Positions 15,416-37,320 of a DNA stretch of 37,320 nucleotides are shown in pieces (the first letter of the stretch is position 1; each line of letters starts with the position of its first letter). The notes under the pieces were generated by a model. It had not been told where the DNA came from. It did no database searches and was given only the letters and a program-made list of their open reading frames with translations. The DNA comes from a virus (Duplodnaviria > Caudoviricetes). The translations under genes and the position numbers were made by a program. Location: positions 1 to 37,320 of the IMG/VR virus record IMGVR_UViG_3300030376_002193; one strand, given 5' to 3'.

Positions 15416-17943
15416 TGGCTTTTTCTAGTAATATAAAAAAATCTAATATATCAGAAAACTGGTTGTTCCAACTAGAATATTATAATGGAGATTCTCAAGG
15501 AGATGGGGGAGGTGGATTTGATCAGATATTTAGAAGTGATGGCACTACTGCTAATTTAATAAATGAAGCTTTTGATGATACTGATACAAGTCTTTTAGTT
15601 GATAACAATACAATGTTTGAGGCTGGAGACTTTATTAAAATAGATAGTGAAATTATGTTAATTACAGAGGTAAGCTCTGGTGCGCCTGTAATAACAGTAG
15701 TCAGAGGGGCAAAAGGAACTACTGCAGCAACGCACAGTGATAATAGTATAATGTTTTGGGATAATTATTTACCTATTTCTTTTTCTGATTTTTCTTATAA
15801 TAATGTTTTTTATCATGGCGTAATTACAAATAATCCTTCAATCAGGGAGTCTATTGATTTAAAAAAATGCACCTCTAAATCTTCAAATATTTCTATAACT
15901 ATACCAGATTTTAAATACAAGGGAAGCCCTATATCTCATGAATTATTTAGTACGCACAAATATATAAATAGAGTTGCCACTGTTTACTCTGTTATTGATG
16001 GCCAAGCTTTAAACAAAATAGCATCTTTTAGAGTTTCTGATATACAAAGTAATGGAATAAAAATCACAATTAATTTAGTAAGTCATAGACCGTGGGATAA
16101 CATTAGCGTTCCTCAAGTTAAAACTACTACAAATCAAAATTATTTTCCTATTGTTTATGGAAAAGATTTTACAGGGAGTTCTAGCTCGTATGCTTCGCCT
16201 TCTTACATTGAAACTTTTAGCAAAAAATTATGGCCAGTAAAAATAGATAAATACAGTTACTTTTTTCAATGTTTATTACATGAAGATTTTTCAGCTGGGA
16301 CATCTATCAGATTGCGTTATTACGAAAAAGGATTTGATGCTTTTGTTCCTCTAGAAACTGCTCTTGATTCTGAAAGCTATGAAAACGGAATTAGTGTTAG
16401 GACTTATTTTCATTTAAGGAGGCATTTTAAATTCAAGCCTACTGCAGCAATTTCTAAAACATTTTCTGATGTTGCTAATATAATTGATGGAACTGCAGAT
16501 CAAACTATTAGTGATACTTTTGCAGAAATGCCTATGGATAAAAATAGTGCTGGGGTTACTACCACCCTTACAAAAGACAATGTTTTTAATTTTCCAGCTT
16601 TTGATGATCCTCCAGATATTACTTCTGATTCTAGTACAAATTTTGGTTTTGTTATAGAGATAAGATGGAAAATGATAGATTTCTATGGAACCACAGGTGA
16701 CAGTAATGGCCTTACTGCAAATAGCGTTACAGTAAGTAATAACAGTAGATATACCACAGGTAATATAAGCGACTCGGTTGCTGGAGGTACAACCTTTGCA
16801 ACAAACGGAACTTTTAATACTGTAAACGCTTCAACTGGAAGTAGTAATGCTGTAACCATAAATGAAACAACTTCATCAACAAATGGTGCAACAACAGCAA
16901 CTGAATTTACATCTTTTCCTTATCAAAACGGATTATCAATTAGGTTTACAAGATTAGTAACCTCTGCAACAGACGGAACTGGAACTGCATCGTCTGGAAT
17001 TAATTCAGATTTACAAGTTGCTGATTTAAGGTGCAAGGTAACTTGTAGAATAGATAAGTTTAATACAACCACAGATGGCTTTGCTAGGATTAGAGATATA
17101 GACAGATTATACTGCGCAAATGATGGATTAGATAATGGCATTACAGGGTTAAGTGGTCAAGTTGAAGAAATACACCAAGCGCATTTAGATTTATTAAATA
17201 GATTTTGTGACGTTGATGTTGCAACAAATCCCAATACAAATATAGATGGTTACAGTGGATTAGATTCTGCAAGGAATAATTGGGATATAAGATACTGGAT
17301 TGAAGAACCAGAGTCATTAGAAAAAGTTTTAAATAAATTACAATTTGAAGGTCAGTTTGTTTTTAGATTTAAGCAGGGAGATTTTACTCAACCACAATAT
17401 GTATTTGTTCCAGATTCTCCAAGCTCTATTTTAACATTATCAAAAAACGATATATCAGATGTTGATCTAGAGGTTTCAAATCCAACAGATATTGTAACAA
17501 AAACCACAGTTAATTACGATAAACACCCAGCTCTAGGAACTTATCAAAATACAGTTACTGGCGTAAATAGTACATCAAGAAAAAATAATAATATACAATC
17601 AAAAGAAAATATAAAAGAAATAAATCTAGATGCTCTTGTTAATAATATAGGGGACACTGATCCAACTGGAGAAGATAAGAATGATAATTTCTTGGCTTAC
17701 ATAAACGCTTTATTTGGTGATATATACTTGAATATTTCATTAGATATAGTAAACCCTAGCAAGTGGGTTGATTCAAGCTTAGATCCAGTTGAAGTAGGTG
17801 ATATAATTGATTTTAATAATGATAATATGTTTCCTGTTTCGCCTTTAGGTTTTAATTCTAATTCTTGGAATGGTTTAAATTTTATTATTGTAAGTACAAA
17901 AAGAAGTTTAGGGAAATTATCAATTAAAGCAAGGAGCCTATAA
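15415..17943 (+). CDS. Large tail tip / hub protein
   Basis: 842 aa after the tape measure; PIVYG motif and C-terminal VEVGDII motif typical of hub proteins. Confidence 0.6.
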   Translation: MAFSSNIKKSNISENWLFQLEYYNGDSQGDGGGGFDQIFRSDGTTANLINEAFDDTDTSLLVDNNTMFEAGDFIKIDSEIMLITEVSSGAPVITVVRGAKGTTAATHSDNSIMFWDNYLPISFSDFSYNNVFYHGVITNNPSIRESIDLKKCTSKSSNISITIPDFKYKGSPISHELFSTHKYINRVATVYSVIDGQALNKIASFRVSDIQSNGIKITINLVSHRPWDNISVPQVKTTTNQNYFPIVYGKDFTGSSSSYASPSYIETFSKKLWPVKIDKYSYFFQCLLHEDFSAGTSIRLRYYEKGFDAFVPLETALDSESYENGISVRTYFHLRRHFKFKPTAAISKTFSDVANIIDGTADQTISDTFAEMPMDKNSAGVTTTLTKDNVFNFPAFDDPPDITSDSSTNFGFVIEIRWKMIDFYGTTGDSNGLTANSVTVSNNSRYTTGNISDSVAGGTTFATNGTFNTVNASTGSSNAVTINETTSSTNGATTATEFTSFPYQNGLSIRFTRLVTSATDGTGTASSGINSDLQVADLRCKVTCRIDKFNTTTDGFARIRDIDRLYCANDGLDNGITGLSGQVEEIHQAHLDLLNRFCDVDVATNPNTNIDGYSGLDSARNNWDIRYWIEEPESLEKVLNKLQFEGQFVFRFKQGDFTQPQYVFVPDSPSSILTLSKNDISDVDLEVSNPTDIVTKTTVNYDKHPALGTYQNTVTGVNSTSRKNNNIQSKENIKEINLDALVNNIGDTDPTGEDKNDNFLAYINALFGDIYLNISLDIVNPSKWVDSSLDPVEVGDIIDFNNDNMFPVSPLGFNSNSWNGLNFIIVSTKRSLGKLSIKARSL

Positions 17944-18980
17944 TGGCAAATATGGATGTAAAAATACCACGATTTTATCCAGATTTAATAAACCATATTA
18001 TGTCAAGAGGTGTAGCTCAAACTGATGTAGCAGATGTAATTACTGGAACTAATTTAATTGGCGTTCAAAACGGAACAGAAGCCGAATTATTTGACCTTAA
18101 CCCTTTAAATCAAGTTGACTTTAATACAAGCGCAGATGATGATGGCCACGTATTAATTAATATAGACACTCAAAACCAATCTAAAAGAATTAATTTTATT
18201 GCGATTTTAAACCATAATATGGTAACAGCTGGAGCAGAGTTTATTGCAGCGACCTCTAATACTGAAAGCCATATAAATAATGTAGATTTTGCAAGTGGAC
18301 ATGCAGACATTGATGGGACAGAAATAGTAAATGCAGATGATATTGAGTCAAGTGGAACACACGCAGTTACTCCAGGAACAAACGGATCAACAATTATAAG
18401 GTTTGCCGAAACTTCTCACCAACATATAGGAATACAATTTCAAGGTTCTGATGGAACTTTTACAGCTACGGATTTAAAAATAGGCTGTATAATAGTTGGT
18501 GAATATTTCGATATGCCTTTTGCTCCAGATTTATCATTAAAGCGATCTATTGTATATGACTCAAATAAAATACAAGAATCATTAGGTGGTCAAAAATATA
18601 GTACAATGGTAAATCATGGCAGAAAAACTTTTGGAGCTGGAAATATATCTCCGTTTAGTGTAACGACTGTAAATCACGACCTTTATGGAGGTAGAATAAT
18701 ATATGATTTAAGCTTTAGTTTTTTAAACAGCGATAAAATAATGCCTGAAGAATATTCCAATCACGAAGATGGCTCTGGAGATGATCAAGTCATTACCGAT
18801 ATTTGGGAAGTTACAAACGGAAATCATCTACCTTTTATTTTTAGCGTTGATAATACTAGCGAAGGAGACGAAGCCGAATCAGAACATATATTCGCTAGAT
18901 TTGGACAAGAATCATTAGATATGACTCAAGTAGCCAATGGCGTTTATTCGTTAAGTATGAAGATTGAAGAAGAATTTTAG
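17943..18980 (+). CDS. Tail tip protein (distal-tail-like)
   Basis: Last structural gene; acidic and beta-rich; ends in SMKIEEEF. Confidence 0.55.
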   Translation: MANMDVKIPRFYPDLINHIMSRGVAQTDVADVITGTNLIGVQNGTEAELFDLNPLNQVDFNTSADDDGHVLINIDTQNQSKRINFIAILNHNMVTAGAEFIAATSNTESHINNVDFASGHADIDGTEIVNADDIESSGTHAVTPGTNGSTIIRFAETSHQHIGIQFQGSDGTFTATDLKIGCIIVGEYFDMPFAPDLSLKRSIVYDSNKIQESLGGQKYSTMVNHGRKTFGAGNISPFSVTTVNHDLYGGRIIYDLSFSFLNSDKIMPEEYSNHEDGSGDDQVITDIWEVTNGNHLPFIFSVDNTSEGDEAESEHIFARFGQESLDMTQVANGVYSLSMKIEEEF

Positions 18981-19015
18981 CTTCTTATAGATATATGTAT
19001 TAAATTACAACCTTA

Positions 19016-19081
19016 TATTAGGGGAGTTTCCTCTCACCTTGCTCCGTGAGTTGTTATTCACAATATTCAGCTCCCCTAATA
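19016..19081 (+). ncRNA. Candidate structured antisense small RNA (three-way junction)
   Basis: 13-bp closing stem 19016-28/19069-81 enclosing CTCAC-[CTTGCTCC]-GTGAG and TTGT-[TATTC]-ACAA; arms are complementary to early-gene leaders; followed by CTCTTTTT. Confidence 0.55.
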
Positions 19082-19096
19082 CTCTTTTTATCTTAT

Positions 19097-19112
19097 AGAG
19101 TTATGTAACTCT
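19097..19112. promoter_or_regulatory. Palindrome, operator candidate
   Basis: AGAGTTA-TG-TAACTCT; another AACTCTT at 19129..19135 overlaps the -35. Confidence 0.45.
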
Positions 19113-19133
19113 TAAAAAAACTGAAATAAACTC

Positions 19134-19177
19134 TTGCAGGTTATATTTTAATTGAGTACATTACTATGTGAATAACA
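19134..19177 (+). promoter_or_regulatory. Sigma70-type early promoter P1 with conserved leader
   Basis: TTGCAG (19134-39), 17 bp, TACATT (19157-62); A-tract upstream; AGTACATTACTATGTGAATAACA is identical at 26251..26273. Confidence 0.8.
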
Positions 19178-19203
19178 CTTTTAAAATAACAAATGGAGCA
19201 AAC

Positions 19204-19539
19204 ATGACAAACTCAAATGATTATGGTAATTACATAAATCTTTCAAACAGATCAAAAGAACAAATTCAAGCTAGATTAGAGCTATCTATTTATAGTGCTG
19301 GAATAAACACGCTAGAACATACATTTGCAAACACTCTTAAAGATGATCTTTACTATGGTTTTTTCAAGGTAGATGCAGACAATGGAAATAATGAACTTCC
19401 TATCAGAGTTACAACAGATGGAGTTGTTCATTTAGAAGTATGCCCAGAGGATTTTCAAATAGGACACATTGATGATCTTGTAACACTTGCAAAAAATCTT
19501 ACTATTTTTAAAGATACTGATTTAAAAGGGGGTAAGTAA
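19204..19539 (+). CDS. Hypothetical early protein
   Basis: GGAGCA RBS at 19195 favours ATG 19204 over GTG 19168. Confidence 0.7.
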   Translation: MTNSNDYGNYINLSNRSKEQIQARLELSIYSAGINTLEHTFANTLKDDLYYGFFKVDADNGNNELPIRVTTDGVVHLEVCPEDFQIGHIDDLVTLAKNLTIFKDTDLKGGK

Positions 19540-20277: not shown

Positions 20278-20588
20278 TGTATTGTATTCAATGTGATAAT
20301 AAGTTTGTAATTCAACAATACAATTCTTATATGAATATGTGCAATAAATGTTCCAATGTTCAAAGATTTTCAATGGAGGTAGAGTTTGATCATCCAGAAT
20401 GCGATTTTGGAGTTTTAGTTGATGCTAACTTAACAAGATTATTATTGCAATTTAAAAAAGCAAAAAAAACTGGTTGGCACCATTCGTTAGCTGGTTGCCC
20501 TAAAATAAAAATACTGAGCGTAAAAGATAATTTTACAGGAGAATTAATTAACCCTAATTTGATAAACAAAATGTTGGAGAAAAAATGA
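20277..20588 (+). CDS. Hypothetical Zn-finger protein
   Basis: CIQC...CNKC; GGGGA RBS. Confidence 0.6.
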   Translation: MYCIQCDNKFVIQQYNSYMNMCNKCSNVQRFSMEVEFDHPECDFGVLVDANLTRLLLQFKKAKKTGWHHSLAGCPKIKILSVKDNFTGELINPNLINKMLEKK

Positions 20589-20986
20589 GACATTCAGAGA
20601 GACAATATTTAGAGCTAGAAACTAATTTTTTAAATTTATTTAATGCAGTTGAATCGCTTTTAACTATTACAGAAGGCGAAAATTTAGACAGCGATCAATT
20701 AAAAGCTAGACATCTTGGGGTATTATCAATTAGGTTAAATGATATATCAGAAAGATTTTCAAAAATTAAACAGGAGGTGCAGTCAAACATGTTCCGTGTC
20801 GATACTGTTATTCACAAAAAACCTCCTGTAACTTTAGAAGAAGAAGAATCAAAAAAACTAATAGAGTGCGTTGAGCATTTTATTTGTATGTGGGAAAAAG
20901 TAGATGATCCTATGCCGTATAAGGATTTACTTAATAAACTAACTAACAAAAGCGATTTACCACAAGATAGGAGCAATAATGACTAA
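20585..20986 (+). CDS. Hypothetical helical protein
   Basis: GGAG RBS; ATGA overlap. Confidence 0.6.
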   Translation: MRHSERQYLELETNFLNLFNAVESLLTITEGENLDSDQLKARHLGVLSIRLNDISERFSKIKQEVQSNMFRVDTVIHKKPPVTLEEEESKKLIECVEHFICMWEKVDDPMPYKDLLNKLTNKSDLPQDRSNND

Positions 20987-21152
20987 ATCAAAACAAGCTA
21001 AAAGATTAAAAAGAAAAAAAGCAAAAAGAAAAAATGCTAATATGCAACAGAACGGATTATCTTATAATAAAAAACAAGAGCTAGAAAAAAATAAAAAGTA
21101 TAGTAAAATAAAACCTCAAAGAAAATACGGAGCTAATAATGAGTCAAAATAA
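20979..21152 (+). CDS. Small Lys/Arg-rich protein (57 aa)
   Basis: GGAGCAA RBS; MTKSKQAKRLKRKKAKRKN... Confidence 0.5.
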   Translation: MTKSKQAKRLKRKKAKRKNANMQQNGLSYNKKQELEKNKKYSKIKPQRKYGANNESK

Positions 21153-21369
21153 AGAAATAAAAAAATATCTAAATCACGGAAATAGATTAACCAGCTTGGA
21201 AGCACTAAATTTATTTGGGTGTATGCGTTTGGCTAGTAGAATAAGCGATTTAAAAAATGAAGGCATGGCTATTGGTTCGGAAACAATAACGGCAGCAAAT
21301 GGAAAGAAATATTCACAATACTATGCTTTACATCCAGAAGGTAATAAAGCTCAAGTCAAGTTGTTTTAA
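21139..21369 (+). CDS. Winged helix-turn-helix DNA-binding protein
   Basis: LTSLEALNLFGCMRLASRISDLKNEG...Y-x-x-Y pattern of small phage wHTH proteins. Confidence 0.8.
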   Translation: MSQNKEIKKYLNHGNRLTSLEALNLFGCMRLASRISDLKNEGMAIGSETITAANGKKYSQYYALHPEGNKAQVKLF

Positions 21370-26187: not shown

Positions 26188-26229
26188 ACTAACTCTTATA
26201 TAACTCTTTAAAAAAAATAAATAAAGAGT

Positions 26230-26273
26230 TTGCATGTATTATTATTGTTTAGTACATTACTATGTGAATAACA
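26230..26273 (+). promoter_or_regulatory. Sigma70-type early promoter P2 with conserved leader
   Basis: TTGCAT (26230-35), 17 bp, TACATT (26253-58); 23-nt identity with P1; inverted repeat AACTCTTTA...TAAAGAGTT at 26202..26230. Confidence 0.8.
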
Positions 26274-26302
26274 TTAACAAACTAAACAAAACGGAGCAGG
26301 AC

Positions 26303-27322
26303 ATGACAAAAGGAACTTTTAATTTAGAAAGAGGATACGGAATAGAGATAGAATTTTTAAGACCTTCTACTCTCTCTCAAAGAATAATAGCTAAGGCGAT
26401 TAATCGACAATTAACACTTCCAGGTACACCACTTAATAGAAATGGTTGCCAGGTTGAGTCTTACAACCACAATACTGTAAACAACTGGAAGATCGTAGGA
26501 GATGCATCTGTTTATACTACAAACTCAGATCGTGGATATACAGGACACAATGAAATTGTTTCACCAATTTTATATGGCTATCAAGGGTTAAAACAATTAG
26601 AAGCGGTTTTAGAAGTTTTAAATACTCTTAATTGTAAAGTTAATTACCATTGTGGAATACACGTTCATCACGATGTTACAAAAAAAGTTTTAGAAGGCAG
26701 AAAGCAAACAACTACTTTTTTAACCAACTTAGTAAAATACATTGCTAAGTACGAACATTTAATTTATAAGCTAGTTTCACCTTCAAGATTAGATCAAAGA
26801 AGATACTCAACACCAGTCAGACAAGATTTTGCAGAGTATCGTAGCGATTTAATAGATGTAAAGAAATTAAAAAAGTCTATTAAGTCAGATGTAAACAGAA
26901 AAGTAGACAACGATGGACTTAATCTAAACAACGGACATTACGCTATAAGACCAAGAACACAAAAGCGTAGAGCTTGTGGATTAAATCTTTTAAATATTTG
27001 GACTAGAGGTTCTGTTGAATTTCGCTATCATAACGGAAGTTTAAATTTTAAAAAGATTACATCCTGGATAGTTTTTACACAGGCGATTGTTAACACTGTT
27101 GAAACTACAAAATCAGTTCCAATGAATTTTGTTCCCAATAATGTAAAAGGACTTACTAGATTCAGAAAGTCTTTAGGGTTCGTCAGTACATCAAATAGAA
27201 GTCCTCTTGTAAAATCTACTAGCAATTATATGCTTAAAAGATTCAAGCAGTTATCAAATAGAGAAACAGATTACAGAAGACATAACCAATACAACCACGT
27301 CAGAGATGGCGTGGTAGTATAA
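26303..27322 (+). CDS. Putative amidoligase (COOH-NH2 ligase, Amidoligase_2-like)
   Basis: GIEIEF, WKIVGDASV, EIVSPIL, CGIHVH and GSVEFR motifs; start moved to ATG 26303 (GGAGCAGG RBS; 26234 lies inside the promoter). Confidence 0.85.
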   Translation: MTKGTFNLERGYGIEIEFLRPSTLSQRIIAKAINRQLTLPGTPLNRNGCQVESYNHNTVNNWKIVGDASVYTTNSDRGYTGHNEIVSPILYGYQGLKQLEAVLEVLNTLNCKVNYHCGIHVHHDVTKKVLEGRKQTTTFLTNLVKYIAKYEHLIYKLVSPSRLDQRRYSTPVRQDFAEYRSDLIDVKKLKKSIKSDVNRKVDNDGLNLNNGHYAIRPRTQKRRACGLNLLNIWTRGSVEFRYHNGSLNFKKITSWIVFTQAIVNTVETTKSVPMNFVPNNVKGLTRFRKSLGFVSTSNRSPLVKSTSNYMLKRFKQLSNRETDYRRHNQYNHVRDGVVV

Positions 27323-27341
27323 TAAATAGGGAGATTATATT

Positions 27342-28235
27342 ATGTGTGGATTAGCAGGAGTAATACTAAAACAAAAAAATAGAACAAATGTAGAGTTGAA
27401 AAAAATAACTACATCTTTTAAAAATATGCTTACAGAAGCAGATACAAGAGGAGGACACGCTACGGGATTTGCTTTAATAGATAAGTACGGAGATTATTTA
27501 TTATGTAAAAAAAATAAAGATGCGTTTGATTTCTTAAAAGATAATCAAGTAAATAGTAATATTGATTCTATTACAAATGACGTTATATGTTTAATGGGAC
27601 ATACTAGATACGCTACTTTAGGATCGCCAGATATTAATAAAAACAATCACCCTATTAGAGCTGGAAAAACCATAGGTACTCATAATGGATCAATACACAA
27701 CCATAAAGAGCTATTTAGAAAGTTTGATATGGAAAGATATGCTCAAGTAGATTCAGAAGCTATTTTCAGACTTTATGAAACATCAGACAATGCGAAAGAT
27801 TTTTCAGAAAATAGATTGCCACTGGTTAGAGGTCGAGTTACTATTGTTTGGGCAGATTTAGAGTATGCAGATTACATATATATAGTCAAAGCAAATAATC
27901 CACTAGAAATGGTTTATATTCCAGAGTTAGATGTTCTAGCTTATGGAAGCACTTTAGATATAGTAAAATCTGGTAAATGGGGTGATTTTGAGCCAATTAG
28001 TATAAAAGCAAATACTATGATGAGAGTTAATACTAAAACATTAAACAAAAGAACAAAGTCAATTAAAATTATAGAACCAATTAAAAAGAAGTCTTATGTT
28101 TATAATAAAGATTTGGGAATTTATCAAAACACAGTAAAAAGATTTGTTCCTAGATATTCATATATTGAAAAACAAAGAGAGCTTTTTAAGGCTTTTAAAT
28201 CCAGCGATGGATCAACAATTAGGAAGATAAAATGA
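27342..28235 (+). CDS. Class II (Ntn) glutamine amidotransferase
   Basis: MCG N-terminal nucleophile, RG-x-x-ATG, GHTRYAT, N-x-HP, HNG and VDSE motifs. Confidence 0.9.
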   Translation: MCGLAGVILKQKNRTNVELKKITTSFKNMLTEADTRGGHATGFALIDKYGDYLLCKKNKDAFDFLKDNQVNSNIDSITNDVICLMGHTRYATLGSPDINKNNHPIRAGKTIGTHNGSIHNHKELFRKFDMERYAQVDSEAIFRLYETSDNAKDFSENRLPLVRGRVTIVWADLEYADYIYIVKANNPLEMVYIPELDVLAYGSTLDIVKSGKWGDFEPISIKANTMMRVNTKTLNKRTKSIKIIEPIKKKSYVYNKDLGIYQNTVKRFVPRYSYIEKQRELFKAFKSSDGSTIRKIK

Positions 28236-28852
28236 AAAAGCATTTATTTGTTTACGGAACACTAAAAAAAGGTTTTCATAATCATATCTTTTTAAAAGAT
28301 TGTAAAATGACAGGACACTTAAAATTAAAACACTATGCCTTAGTTGATCTAGGGCATGGGTTTCCATATATGATTGAATCAACAAAGCACGAATGGGTTT
28401 ATGGAGAAGTCTATGAAGTCAATAGAGCTATTTTAAAAAGAATTGATTTATTAGAAGGCGTGCCATATCATTATCAAAGACAGAATATGTTATTAGATAC
28501 GCCAGAGGGTAAACCAATTAACACATATTACTATGTGTCTAATTTAAAAGATGTTGAACATCTTAAAGTAAAAGATAATTACTGGGCACCTAGTAAAGCT
28601 TATAGTACAGTATTTGATGTAATTGTTGATGGTCGTGAATATTCTGATACTGCAGATAAGATAGTATTTCATATGAGATTTTTTGATGGCGACAGAACAC
28701 CAACTAACAAAGATTATATGAAACTTGTAAAAGCTAGAAGTCACTTACCTATAAATATAGATAGCGAAAATTTATTTCTTTTAGATTGTATTCATTATGG
28801 AATAGTAAAATATATAGATTATAAGTATATTAATAACGTGAATAAACAATAA
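28232..28852 (+). CDS. Gamma-glutamylcyclotransferase (AIG2-like) with C-terminal extension
   Basis: LFVYGTLKKG, VYGEVYEV and IDLLEG-x-x-x-x-Y-x-R motifs. Confidence 0.85.
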   Translation: MKKHLFVYGTLKKGFHNHIFLKDCKMTGHLKLKHYALVDLGHGFPYMIESTKHEWVYGEVYEVNRAILKRIDLLEGVPYHYQRQNMLLDTPEGKPINTYYYVSNLKDVEHLKVKDNYWAPSKAYSTVFDVIVDGREYSDTADKIVFHMRFFDGDRTPTNKDYMKLVKARSHLPINIDSENLFLLDCIHYGIVKYIDYKYINNVNKQ

Positions 28853-34518: not shown

Positions 34519-35403
34519 ATGGCTGATTATCACGGTTTTTCGGGTGATGTAACCCAAAAAACAGACATTGATGTATTCGTTCCTGAACTATGGGGTGACG
34601 GGGTACTTCGATATTTTGAAAAGTCTTTAGTTTTTAAACCATTCTTTGATGATTATTCTAGTTTGGTTCAAGGGCGTGGAGACGTTTTACACATTCCAAC
34701 AATGCAAGAAGTTGCAAGTGCTACAAAAGCAGCAAATGATTCAGTAGATTATACTGCTAATGTTGAAACAGATATTGATTTAGCAATAGATCAACACGTT
34801 TATGCAGCTAAGCTATTTGAAGATATTGCAATGGTACAAAGCAACGAACAGCTTTTTGATAAGTATGCTCAATCTATGGCTTATGCTCTAGGAAAAGCAG
34901 TTGATACAAAGATAGAAGAATTATTGCAAACTATTGGAACAACTCAAACTCTAGCTGCAGACAACACAATGTCAAACGCTGATGTTGAAACTGCTCTAGG
35001 CACTTTAATGGCTAATGATATACCAGCTGATGAATGTGCTTTCTTTGTTAATCCTCTTATTTATGCTGACTTAATGAACTCAAAAGCATTTGTAACGAAT
35101 AACTCTGGCGCAGGTGTTGGTTTTGGTAATGATAACGCAGTAATGCAAACTGGTCTAGTTGGAAACCTTTTTGGTATTCCAGTAATGACTAGCTCTTTAA
35201 TTCCTACAACAACTTCAACAGGAATTGAAGCTGCATATCTAGTACATAAATCAGCTATTGCAGTAGCAGTTCAGCAGGATATAAGAGTACAATCTGAATA
35301 CGATGTATCTTATCTAGGAACTAAAGTTGTGGCTGACATCATTTATGGTGCAGTAATTACTACTTCAAATCATGTTAAAGGAATAGAATTTTTAAATCCT
35401 TAA
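34519..35403 (+). CDS. Major capsid protein B
   Basis: FVPELW, GDVLHIP, AKLFED, G-x-LFGIPV and DIIYG motifs; homolog of 432..1328. Confidence 0.9.
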   Translation: MADYHGFSGDVTQKTDIDVFVPELWGDGVLRYFEKSLVFKPFFDDYSSLVQGRGDVLHIPTMQEVASATKAANDSVDYTANVETDIDLAIDQHVYAAKLFEDIAMVQSNEQLFDKYAQSMAYALGKAVDTKIEELLQTIGTTQTLAADNTMSNADVETALGTLMANDIPADECAFFVNPLIYADLMNSKAFVTNNSGAGVGFGNDNAVMQTGLVGNLFGIPVMTSSLIPTTTSTGIEAAYLVHKSAIAVAVQQDIRVQSEYDVSYLGTKVVADIIYGAVITTSNHVKGIEFLNP

Positions 35404-35421
35404 ACCTTGATAAAAAATATT

Positions 35422-35449
35422 GGGTGGTGTTAATTCGCCACCCTTTATT
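35422..35449 (+). terminator. Stem-loop after MCP B
   Basis: GGGTGGTG-TTAATT-CGCCACCC-TTTATT. Confidence 0.65.
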
Positions 35450-35460
35450 AAAAGGACATT

Positions 35461-35622
35461 ATGATAATACTTAAAAAAGATAAACATTACGAACATACCC
35501 TAGATACTGATAAAGCTTCAAAAATGGTTCAAAATGGCTATGAAGTTGTAAAGGGTAAGACTATATTAGACAAAGCAAAAAAAGAAGTAAAAACAAAGAA
35601 AAAGCCTATTAAGAAAAAGTAA
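35461..35622 (+). CDS. Small Lys-rich head-region protein (53 aa)
   Basis: AAGGA RBS; MIILKKDKHYEH...NGYEVV...KKPIKKK. Confidence 0.6.
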   Translation: MIILKKDKHYEHTLDTDKASKMVQNGYEVVKGKTILDKAKKEVKTKKKPIKKK

Positions 35623-35633
35623 CAAAAATATGG

Positions 35634-35664
35634 CTCGTTCACGGTTAACCATTAACCTTAGAGA
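35634..35664 (+). promoter_or_regulatory. Conserved structured leader motif, copy B
   Basis: CTC-GTTCAC-[GGTTAA CCA TTAACC]-TTA-GAGA directly before an AGGAG RBS. Confidence 0.55.
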
Positions 35665-35676
35665 TTAGGAGAATCA

Positions 35677-35961
35677 ATGGCAACATCAAATCTACACAAT
35701 TATACAACTCAAGAAGCTCAAAATAGACTCGGTGGTGGTGGTTACGATTATGTAACAAACGCAACTGTAAACTCTCATACTTATGTGGCAATCCAAGCAT
35801 TATCAGTTGATTGCGTAGTTACAGCCACGTCAGTTGATACCGATATTTGGGACACATTAACAAGCGTAACAATTTTAGCAGGTCAAACTATTTATGGTGA
35901 ATGGTCAAGCGTAGCAGTAGCCAATGGTGATTTTGCTTTAGTATATAGAAAATCTAGCTAG
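35677..35961 (+). CDS. Virion structural protein (decoration-like)
   Basis: Beta-rich; N-terminal NLHNYTTQEAQN resembles the start of the 114-aa proteins. Confidence 0.6.
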   Translation: MATSNLHNYTTQEAQNRLGGGGYDYVTNATVNSHTYVAIQALSVDCVVTATSVDTDIWDTLTSVTILAGQTIYGEWSSVAVANGDFALVYRKSS

Positions 35962-35969
35962 AGGATAAT

Positions 35970-36314
35970 ATGGCAAATCTACATAAAAGATCGGTTCAAG
36001 AAGCATTAAATGCGACAGTTGGAGGTAATTGGACAGTAAATTCTGCTGGTACTGCAGGTTCAAGTGCTAGTACAGGAAACACAACTCATTTATCTCTAGC
36101 CACTATGACTTCAACAATCGGAATACATTCCGCAGTAGAAATTTATTTTAATTTCACAACTACTGCTACTGATGTAAACGCTTCAAACGATATGATAATT
36201 CCTAAGAATACCCTTACTTTTTTAACAGTTCCAAGGGGATTAGGAAATACAGTATATCTAAATTATAATTCAACTAGCACAACGACTGGTGCTGTAAGAG
36301 TAGTGGAGATATAA
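35970..36314 (+). CDS. Virion structural protein, homolog of 1650..1994
   Basis: 88/114 residues identical by manual count. Confidence 0.65.
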   Translation: MANLHKRSVQEALNATVGGNWTVNSAGTAGSSASTGNTTHLSLATMTSTIGIHSAVEIYFNFTTTATDVNASNDMIIPKNTLTFLTVPRGLGNTVYLNYNSTSTTTGAVRVVEI

Positions 36315-37320
36315 TGCAAAGTTCAATGCTAAGAACTATTGTCGAAGATTTCGGTAATGGTGGAACAATAGATGGCGACCTAGTAATAACAGGTGATCTA
36401 CAAGTTGATGGTGGTGGATCACTTAGCTTTGATGAGATAATAGAAGGAACGCAAGTAATAGATGTAACTAGCACCGAAGCTCTATTAGTTAGAAAGAATG
36501 GAGATGGTGGCGATATATTTATTGTTGATACTACAAATTCAGAAGTAGATGTTACTGGTAAATTAAAAATTGATGCAAATGCCACTTCTGGAACAGCAAT
36601 CGAGATTGATTCTGAAACGCAAGATGGTCAAGGTATTTATATGGATATTAGCCAACAAACAAGTGGCTATGGAATTAATATAAATGATGTAGGTACAAGC
36701 AGAACAACTGGAGGAATATTATACATAAACTCTAATCAATCTGGTACTGGCACTAGAAATCTAGTTGAAATAATAAACAATCATATTAATGCAACTGGCA
36801 CAACTGCTTTAAAGATTAAACAAGATTCTGCTCAATACGCTATGGCTATTGACCAAAATGGAAACGCCAATGCAATTAGAATTGACTCTGATGCAACTAC
36901 AAATGTAGGAGCAATTCAAGCTCATGTAGATTCTTTAACAACTGGAAGGATTGCATATTTCTATTCTAATTCTAGCGACACATCTACTAGAGGATTGGTT
37001 AAAATTGTTAATGATCACGCTAGTGCAACTGGTACAACAGCCTTAGAAATACAGCAAGATTCTACTGGGTTAGCTTTACATTCGACTGGTACGATCCTTA
37101 TAGACCAATCTGCTGGTACATCTAATTCAGCAGTTTTAAGACTTGAAGCAGATAGAGGTAGTGCAGATCAAGATAGTGGAGAAATAAGATTTTATAATCA
37201 AGGTGGAAGTGATCACGATTACGCTAGAATTGTAGGCGTAAGAGGTGGTGCAGATAACTCTGGATATTTACAGTTTAGAACAAGTGAAGCTGGAACAGAA
37301 GGCACTAGAATGACTATTTC
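36314..37320 (+). CDS. Fibre protein B (3'-truncated)
   Basis: MQSSMLRTIVEDFGNGGTIDGDLVITGDL...TEALLVRKNGDGGDIFIVDTTNS is homologous to the N-terminus of 1996..5976, then diverges; appears open to the window end. Confidence 0.8.
   Translation, partial: MQSSMLRTIVEDFGNGGTIDGDLVITGDLQVDGGGSLSFDEIIEGTQVIDVTSTEALLVRKNGDGGDIFIVDTTNSEVDVTGKLKIDANATSGTAIEIDSETQDGQGIYMDISQQTSGYGININDVGTSRTTGGILYINSNQSGTGTRNLVEIINNHINATGTTALKIKQDSAQYAMAIDQNGNANAIRIDSDATTNVGAIQAHVDSLTTGRIAYFYSNSSDTSTRGLVKIVNDHASATGTTALEIQQDSTGLALHSTGTILIDQSAGTSNSAVLRLEADRGSADQDSGEIRFYNQGGSDHDYARIVGVRGGADNSGYLQFRTSEAGTEGTRMTI

Follow-up and report, generated by a model that had tools for sequence, protein, structure and literature searches.

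The closest described relatives, in logic, of the element considered here are two small phage RNAs. The c4 RNA of phages P1 and P7 is described as binding near a ribosome-binding site and blocking translation, with variants that give heteroimmunity (PMC12197685), and the c4 consensus drawing shows a' and b' regions (PMC2864571 supplement 6). The CI RNA of the satellite phage P4 provides RNA-only early-gene control by pairing with two sequences (PMC4825925). A further motif, c4-2 (RF02944; Weinberg 2017), is presented as a likely distant homolog of a known RNA (PMC5737381). A second strand of background concerns messages that begin with a start codon. E. coli messages are described that carry a 5'-terminal AUG together with a downstream start led by a Shine-Dalgarno (SD) sequence (Beck et al. 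2016, PMC4965119), and the 5'-terminal AUG binds ribosomes and can alter downstream expression (PMC4965119). Leaderless translation is reported to be enhanced by CA repeats near the start, and GUG is a poor leaderless start in E. coli and an efficient one in some other bacteria (PMC9031893). Section 4 of that source gives small-RNA control of leaderless messages as unreported as of 2022 (PMC9031893).

The window, by which is meant the whole stretch of 37,320 nucleotides that was analysed, is a complete-looking tailed-phage record (CheckV 100%) with all of its genes on the + strand, running from the head and tail genes through a set of small early genes that begins at 19168, then DNA methylases and an amidoligase unit beginning at 26264, to the terminase; its promoters are predicted to be of the sigma-70 type. 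The best matches of the terminase in cultured phages are about 42% identical, the relatives of the phage are uncultured, the metagenome records that name an environment are marine, and a genome scan for a host returned a single 35%-identical contig in a MAG. Family and profile searches of the window proteins and a tRNA search detected no integrase, CI-type repressor or tRNA; the integrase, S24 and HTH_3 families have no match among the window proteins, and likewise none in five of five near-complete relatives, and no antirepressor family was found among the window proteins. The major capsid gene and the genes following it are present as two diverged copies (432-2234 and 34519-36546, about 34.3 kb apart) that are 72-78% identical in repeats, which could reflect a duplication or the join of two related genomes at the contig ends.

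At 19016-19081, a position between the tail genes and the early genes, the initial annotation had described a two-armed RNA, antisense to the leaders and ribosome-binding sites of the early transcripts; when the sequence was re-examined all of its coordinates held. The parts of this element and the gene before it are as follows.

17943-18980, + strand: last gene of the tail operon, 345 aa, the marker gene for gathering relatives.
19001-19006, + strand: candidate -10 box, TAAATT, of the RNA's own promoter, from hexamer conservation; putative in function.
19016-19081, + strand: small RNA core, 66 nt, from its fold and its match to model R2, which was built without the window sequence.
19016-19028 with 19069-19081, + strand: outer stem P1, from the fold and pair counts.
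19033-19037 with 19046-19050, + strand: hairpin P2, from the fold and pair counts.
19038-19047, + strand: arm 1, the P2 loop, with a CUCC anti-SD core, from core conservation and pairing lengths.
19052-19062, + strand: arm 2, the putative specificity arm, complementary to the predicted first bases of the early transcripts, from the exact match and co-variation.

The element starts 35 nt past the last tail gene and is predicted to fold, as annotated, into a 13-bp outer stem (one G-U) closing two hairpins at -22 kcal/mol; the stability of 19016-19081 corresponds to z = -5.06, and none of 200 shuffles was as stable. Of the two annotated hairpins P2 is conserved, whereas the second, 4 bp around arm 2, is weak and unconserved in relatives, in which arm 2 is for the most part unpaired; it takes 1.3 kcal/mol to open arm 2, against a duplex of -12.2 kcal/mol. 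Across 24 RNAs the non-Watson-Crick oppositions inside P1 comprise 15 G-U, no A-C and two others, which fixes the + strand and argues for an RNA over a DNA cruciform. All 16 family members have a TAnnTT hexamer 7-12 nt upstream of P1, with no consensus -35, and the RNA is therefore probably made from a -10-only promoter of its own. An intrinsic terminator was considered and rejected, as the outer stem encloses 40 nt rather than a loop of 3-8 nt and the U-tract is not conserved; a short U-rich tail is present in the window, and in the alignment the 3' tail of relatives is CUCC-rich rather than U-rich. A terminator scan flagged the inner hairpin alone at the element and found four candidates against 3.6 expected.

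Relatives were collected at about 290 loci via the last tail gene as marker, two DNA patterns and the early gene X described below. The first pattern matched 51 loci with L032 (contig of L015) as the sole real member among the matches listed, and the second matched 16, of which five were real and one, L155, new. The initial annotation had recognised no RNA family here, and Rfam scans of the window, 11 related loci and three single regions (E 10) gave no match to C4 or to any other relevant family. Model R2, a covariance model built from three relatives with the window sequence excluded, recovers the window RNA at 19013-19087 with E 5.5e-9. On the strength of these comparisons the element is a member of an uncatalogued RNA family, represented by 15 distinct sequences in related phages. 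As a held-out set, 18 new loci were picked by gene X alone, five of them lacking upstream DNA and 13 testable; R2 finds the RNA in 12 of the 13, each with a match of 7-11 nt to its own leader, and a stricter 9-nt scan alone caught six of the 18 against one per control. In the thirteenth locus, L278, arm 2 and the matching leader have been lost together; the shortened RNA at L278:7596-7644 retains P1 and the anti-SD loop and appears to be a natural loss-of-arm variant.

The structural alignment comprises 17 rows, 15 of them distinct, and being fitted to the model it leans toward it; with that bias, 90% of its cells are paired, 17 of 18 pairs contain double changes, and its covariation is 0.596 against 0.216 when shuffled and at most 0.147 when slid. 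The conserved anatomy consists of P1, the P2 hairpin with its CUCC loop and a mostly single-stranded arm 2. The element is accordingly more than an outer stem of the kind that a plain terminator would conserve, the inner hairpin and both arms also being kept in relatives, and the double changes in 17 of 18 pairs speak against a decayed copy of the leader. Between the window and L001 the tail gene is 97% identical, the RNA 64% and the leader 69%; the stems of the L001 RNA are rebuilt, its arm 2 is altered, and the leaders at both promoters are altered to match.

The targets assigned to the two arms lie at two early promoters.

19097-19135, no strand assigned: AACTCTT/AGAGTT repeats just upstream of the p1 -35, present also at p2 (26191-26231).
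19134-19162, + strand: predicted early promoter p1, -35 TTGCAG, 17 nt, -10 TACATT.
19168-19206, + strand: leader 1, in which GTG at the predicted +1 opens a 12-codon stretch in frame with the SD-led ATG at 19204; both targets inside.
19204-19539, + strand: first gene of early unit 1, function unassigned, which differs among relatives.
26230-26258, + strand: predicted early promoter p2, -35 TTGCAT, 17 nt, -10 TACATT.
26264-26305, + strand: leader 2, in which GTG at the predicted +1 opens a 13-codon stretch in frame with the ATG at 26303; both targets inside.
26303-27322, + strand: amidoligase-family gene (PF12224, E 1.3e-29; phrog_2443), first in its unit.

Arm 2 is, as first reported, the exact reverse complement of 19167-19177 and 26263-26273 at the two predicted promoter starts, and when the loop was shuffled 200,000 times an 11-nt complement at both starts arose in only 21 cases. 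When 182 loci were scanned blind, predicted +1 ends had 29 distinct antisense matches enclosed by a stem, in 42 loci, and the controls gave five direct, two complement-only and five reverse-only matches. Co-variation was scored in 16 model-supported members, leaving out L244 and L134 and scoring L280 on the leader of its second promoter because the adjacent one pairs in a shifted register. Arm 2 pairs with leader positions +1 to +10 in 134 of 160 cells where 114.6 are expected when leaders are dealt to other phages, a value reached in none of 100,000 such shuffles, which ignore the relatedness of the phages. Positions +1 to +6 pair in 16 of 16 members, +8 in 15, -1 in 14 and -2 in only four, with double changes at +1, +2, +5 and +8. 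The duplexes are short (7-11 bp) and AU-rich, and in L149 the match extends 6 nt upstream of the predicted +1. A 19 x 19 matrix of arms and leaders gave 11.6 against 5.5 nt, a comparison that is partly circular as members were chosen on complementarity. The same target recurs at second or third promoters in the window and in L001, L015, L155, L280, L282, L285 and L291, two or more promoters at distances of up to 7 kb thus sharing it, and with the same 5' sequence at extra promoters in eight phages the RNA would be required to act in trans. In a genome-wide nested co-folding scan of 9,318 segments the antisense strand of the RNA itself comes ahead of the two leaders, which rank third and seventh, and for most relatives the net energies are near zero, in part because the program does not allow pairing within a closed loop; the leaders do not stand out by thermodynamics alone.

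Arm 1 matches 26291-26300 and 19193-19201, each with one G-U, as the initial annotation stated. Its reading as an arm that pairs with the ribosome-binding site fits the window, with 9-10 nt, but the pairing is generic and falls to 5-8 nt in nine other upstream-type leaders. CTCC is present in arm 1 of 15 of 16 family members and CTCT in one, and a comparison of G-U with A-C oppositions at arm 1 (158 and 151) does not discriminate. Co-variation of the arms with leader and ribosome-binding site, which the annotation had proposed to look for, is therefore found for arm 2 (134 of 160 against 114.6); arm 1 varies little with its targets. Together, arm 2 reads as the element that gives specificity and arm 1 as a general anti-SD helper.

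The leaders are rich in A and CA and almost without structure (-1.2 kcal/mol). All transcription start sites used here are predicted, and p1 is absent among the matches listed by a generic promoter scan. An ATG or GTG stands at the start of the target in all 36 sites first examined, 31 of which lie 4-9 nt after a -10-like hexamer; such a start codon occurs at 341 of 4323 promoter-like sites in the background, and an upstream start of this kind precedes none of 47 other window genes. Of 29 distinct leaders (seven near-duplicate or unresolved rows were left out), 15 have a 5' start whose reading frame continues in frame into the first gene, 12 a frame that terminates no more than 15 nt from that gene, one a frame that overlaps it and one a frame that stops early, so that 28 of 29 are open to the first gene against 10.8 expected. 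Among the held-out leaders 13 of 17 carry ATG or GTG 5-6 nt after the -10, ten of these in frame (about 2.5 expected) and three coupled; the four without a 5' start are three GCG leaders of one clade, which keep the arm pairing, and that of L280 p1. The frame that stops early is at L134 p4, and that of the second L155 promoter stops after four codons. The predicted GUG or AUG at the targeted 5' end is thus in most leaders either coupled to the first gene or in its frame, which means that the two arms cover two possible translation starts; both of these may be used. The 5'-terminal AUGs of E. coli involve no small RNA, whereas the starts in these phages are mostly GUG, usually in frame and matched by an RNA arm.

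Upstream of the -35 in ten of ten target promoters examined there are AAC(T/C)CTT repeats, direct or inverted, whose T/C variant differs between phages; they could be protein-binding sites and hence a second, protein-based layer of control. The unit behind the second targeted promoter (26303-28852) consists of amidoligase, glutamine amidotransferase and gamma-glutamyl cyclotransferase genes, and amidoligase-like first genes also sit behind targeted promoters in L015 and L285.

A probable second copy of the RNA lies within the early unit, inside a coding gene.

20585-20986, + strand: early gene X, 133 aa, function unassigned, with the embedded stem in a variable linker.
20770-20829, + strand: probable second RNA copy in gene X, with a 9-bp stem, from model R3 and its fold.
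21139-21369: winged-helix gene, from a profile match.

The embedded stem encloses an anti-SD-like stretch (20790-20796) and an exact copy of arm 2 (20806-20816), a third 11-nt match, in the RNA's own orientation, that had been overlooked in the initial annotation. Model R3 places the embedded copy as its second-best match in the window (E 0.0053), with the L015 copy at E 0.0078; a search of the window with R2 missed it. Comparison of gene X in the window and in L001 gives identities of 92% and 86% on the two flanks of the stem and of 57% inside it, and the inside matches the phage's own leader both in L001 (9 nt) and in L155, there with a compensatory change in the stem. A stable stem is present at the linker in 16 of 17 gene X loci and absent in the L103/L105 type, and the arm-2 match is kept in some of the loci only. 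Synonymous recoding of the embedded arm gave a weak signal (134, 451 and 294 of 3000). The embedded copy is probably a paralogue or an ancestor of the stand-alone RNA. In the gene X linkers of L275-L291 an ACTCC stretch lies in the conserved in-frame stem (16 of 17), which is about twice as stable as a control stretch taken from gene X itself, and in the window an AGGAGG sequence located 11 nt ahead of an in-frame ATG is likewise buried in the embedded stem.

Set beside the known systems, the element resembles P1/P7 c4 (RF01695; target motif c4-a1b1) in being a small phage RNA of several stems that exposes two short antisense regions, one of them matching the region of a ribosome-binding site. 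The analogy with c4 and CI that the initial annotation drew survives as a shared logic but does not extend to membership of Rfam C4 or c4-2: the window does not match RF01695 even at E 10 and stays below its gathering threshold of 45 bits, and the c4-2 model (RF02944, 41 bits), for which two candidates were scored, has no match at E 10 in the window genome. The window RNA has about 66 positions against 87 in c4, and its family conserves P1 and P2 only, whereas c4 has a conserved three-stem junction of P1, P2 and P3. It lies upstream of the target promoter behind its own candidate -10 and is directed at the extreme 5' ends of several early units, whereas c4 is located within the transcript that it targets, an antirepressor message. 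c4 works together with a protein repressor and an antirepressor, neither of which was found among the window proteins. The a1b1 target of c4 lies upstream of the RNA and its a2b2 target downstream, and c4 is matured by RNase P. With P4 CI the window RNA has in common RNA-only early-gene control, as proposed here, through two pairing segments. P4 CI, however, is processed from the transcript it controls, between seqA and seqC, and acts by termination, whereas the stand-alone window RNA is upstream of its targets and one of these is an anti-SD site; the embedded copy (20770-20829) is within the early unit, unlike the stand-alone RNA upstream of p1. P4 integrates, whereas the window phage has no integrase match. 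The two-arm logic is already known from c4 and CI, and a search of the openly readable literature found no description of the family itself.

RNAs of the same logic occur in more distant phages with the same tail gene, outside detection by R2 and R3; neither model matches the type B RNAs, L244 or L134 at E 10, and their likeness to the window family is one of logic. L134 has four promoters and one RNA, which is followed by a terminator, and L244 is likewise a look-alike. In the type B layout (L076, L095, L097, L104, L112, L118, L121, L123, L131, L135, L145, L178, L191, L197, L203, L219, L229, L232, L243 and L247) the RNA lies 30-50 nt inside the early leader, and a frame of 28-40 codons from a 5' AUG traverses it to the first gene and is open in 15 of 15. 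The arm of a type B RNA often has matches at the downstream ribosome site as well as at the 5' end, and the frame is coupled or fused to the first gene. The c4 layout, with targets on both sides of the RNA in one transcript, is therefore that of type B and not that of the window RNA, whose targets are at separate downstream promoters; like P4 CI, too, the type B look-alikes sit between an upstream and a downstream target in one transcript.

The position after the tail genes is occupied by other modules in other phages. In L002-L018, L144 and L146 (e.g. L010:5890-6220) it contains a promoter with a palindromic operator, then a nearly leaderless 62-aa HTH-like gene, then a further RNA, closed by a stem, that has a long loop of CT repeats and an outer stem reaching right up to the next ATG, and GAGAG-type ribosome sites are found at several downstream genes. 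In L088, L110, L132, L141, L170, L172, L184 and L189 it is filled by attP-like fragments of tRNA ends, an integrase or both. Modules of RNA, HTH and integrase type thus appear to alternate at one genomic position. An integrase match (PF00589) was found in none of 23 records taken to be RNA-bearing and in four of 27 others, small numbers in which many records are fragments, seven of the 23 being at least 90% complete and the membership of L098 assumed.

The best explanation of these features, to which a probability of about 0.72 is assigned, is that the element is a conserved folded RNA gene whose product would act in trans as an antisense repressor of the early messages, blocking both of their predicted starts. 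The comparisons above establish the fold, the strand, the arms, the co-variation and the reading frames; from them we infer that the RNA is expressed and pairs with the leaders, and also the sign of its effect and its role. It is proposed that the RNA is transcribed from its own -10-only promoter and accumulates after infection, that arm 2 then pairs with the first 8-11 bases of the early messages and arm 1 with their ribosome-binding site, and that 70S ribosomes would be kept from loading at the 5'-terminal start and 30S subunits at the SD start, leaving an untranslated early message to be terminated or degraded. An unlikely variant, though the strongest of the rivals, is that the antisense RNA targets these leaders too but has its main effect on the transcription or stability of the message, through premature termination or RNase attack once the emerging 5' end is paired, with the 5' start codons incidental. 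P4 CI is described as terminating transcription by pairing with seqA and seqC (PMC4825925), and the GCG clade (L279, L286-288) keeps the arm pairing although its 5' end is not a start codon. Against this, the 5' frames are open and mostly in frame far above chance, arm 1 is a conserved anti-SD loop, and the A-rich leaders (-1.2 kcal/mol) offer almost no structure to switch.

That the shared 11-mer is instead a DNA operator, bound by a phage or host protein at both promoters, the hairpin and gene X, is very improbable. The 11-mer does occur in both orientations within the window, its in-gene copy tracks the arm in L001 and L155, and a winged-helix gene is present at 21139-21369; but without exception the arm is antisense to the leader and enclosed by the stem (29 against five direct matches), the stems use G-U and not A-C, the in-gene copy sits in a stem that R3 scores as a second RNA copy, and the edge of the match falls at the predicted +1. 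Match orientation and the G-U bias likewise disfavour the DNA operator that the initial annotation had named as a way to be wrong. The window 9-mer fits TT[AT]TNCACA, which we take to be the DnaA-box pattern; a DnaA box was rejected, the 9-mer being broken in L001, L103, L155, L149, L279, L281, L283 and L285. Marginally less probable again is a cis-acting structure at the end of late tail transcripts, which would serve as a terminator or insulator and pair with the adjacent leader only when transcription reads through. It would suit the location 35 nt after the last tail gene, the short U-rich tail in the window and the predicted pairing of arms and leader in cis within a continuous 18981-19210 transcript (-43.6 kcal/mol). 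It would not suit an interior of 40 nt in place of a 3-8 nt loop, an unconserved U-tract, distant promoters bearing the same target, or the separate -10 ahead of the RNA in 16 of 16. Two-segment guide RNAs exist, and the least probable reading of all is that the RNA guides a protein to the leaders or to DNA, or activates the messages as does IsrK, for which activation of translation in trans is described (PMC4825925). The arms would directly cover the start codon and the SD, the leaders hold no inhibitory structure to open, and the 55 window proteins include no Cas, TnpB, IS110 or Nop-type match.

If the RNA is the trans-acting repressor favoured above, its role would, with somewhat better than even odds, be a delayed shut-off of early expression that also blocks later phages with the same leader, amounting to protein-free, type-specific immunity; a switch to a carrier state or lysogeny is the more tentative alternative. 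In a more speculative and rather doubtful extension, the 5'-terminal GUG or AUG would serve as a barcode on each early message that the RNA reads, shutting both the leaderless and the SD-led start; arms and barcodes would be exchanged as one module, giving rise to immunity groups, and the embedded copy would let the early message feed back on its own 5' end, the RNA copy within the early coding gene changing the protein to keep step. The element itself would add to the regulatory RNAs of phages a family in which natural compensatory changes are unusually clear, and a possible answer to how marine phages without a repressor or integrase limit early expression or superinfection. The natural arm/leader pairs of several specificities make small-RNA control of leaderless initiation testable, and orthogonal pairs of 66-nt repressor and leader may prove useful parts.
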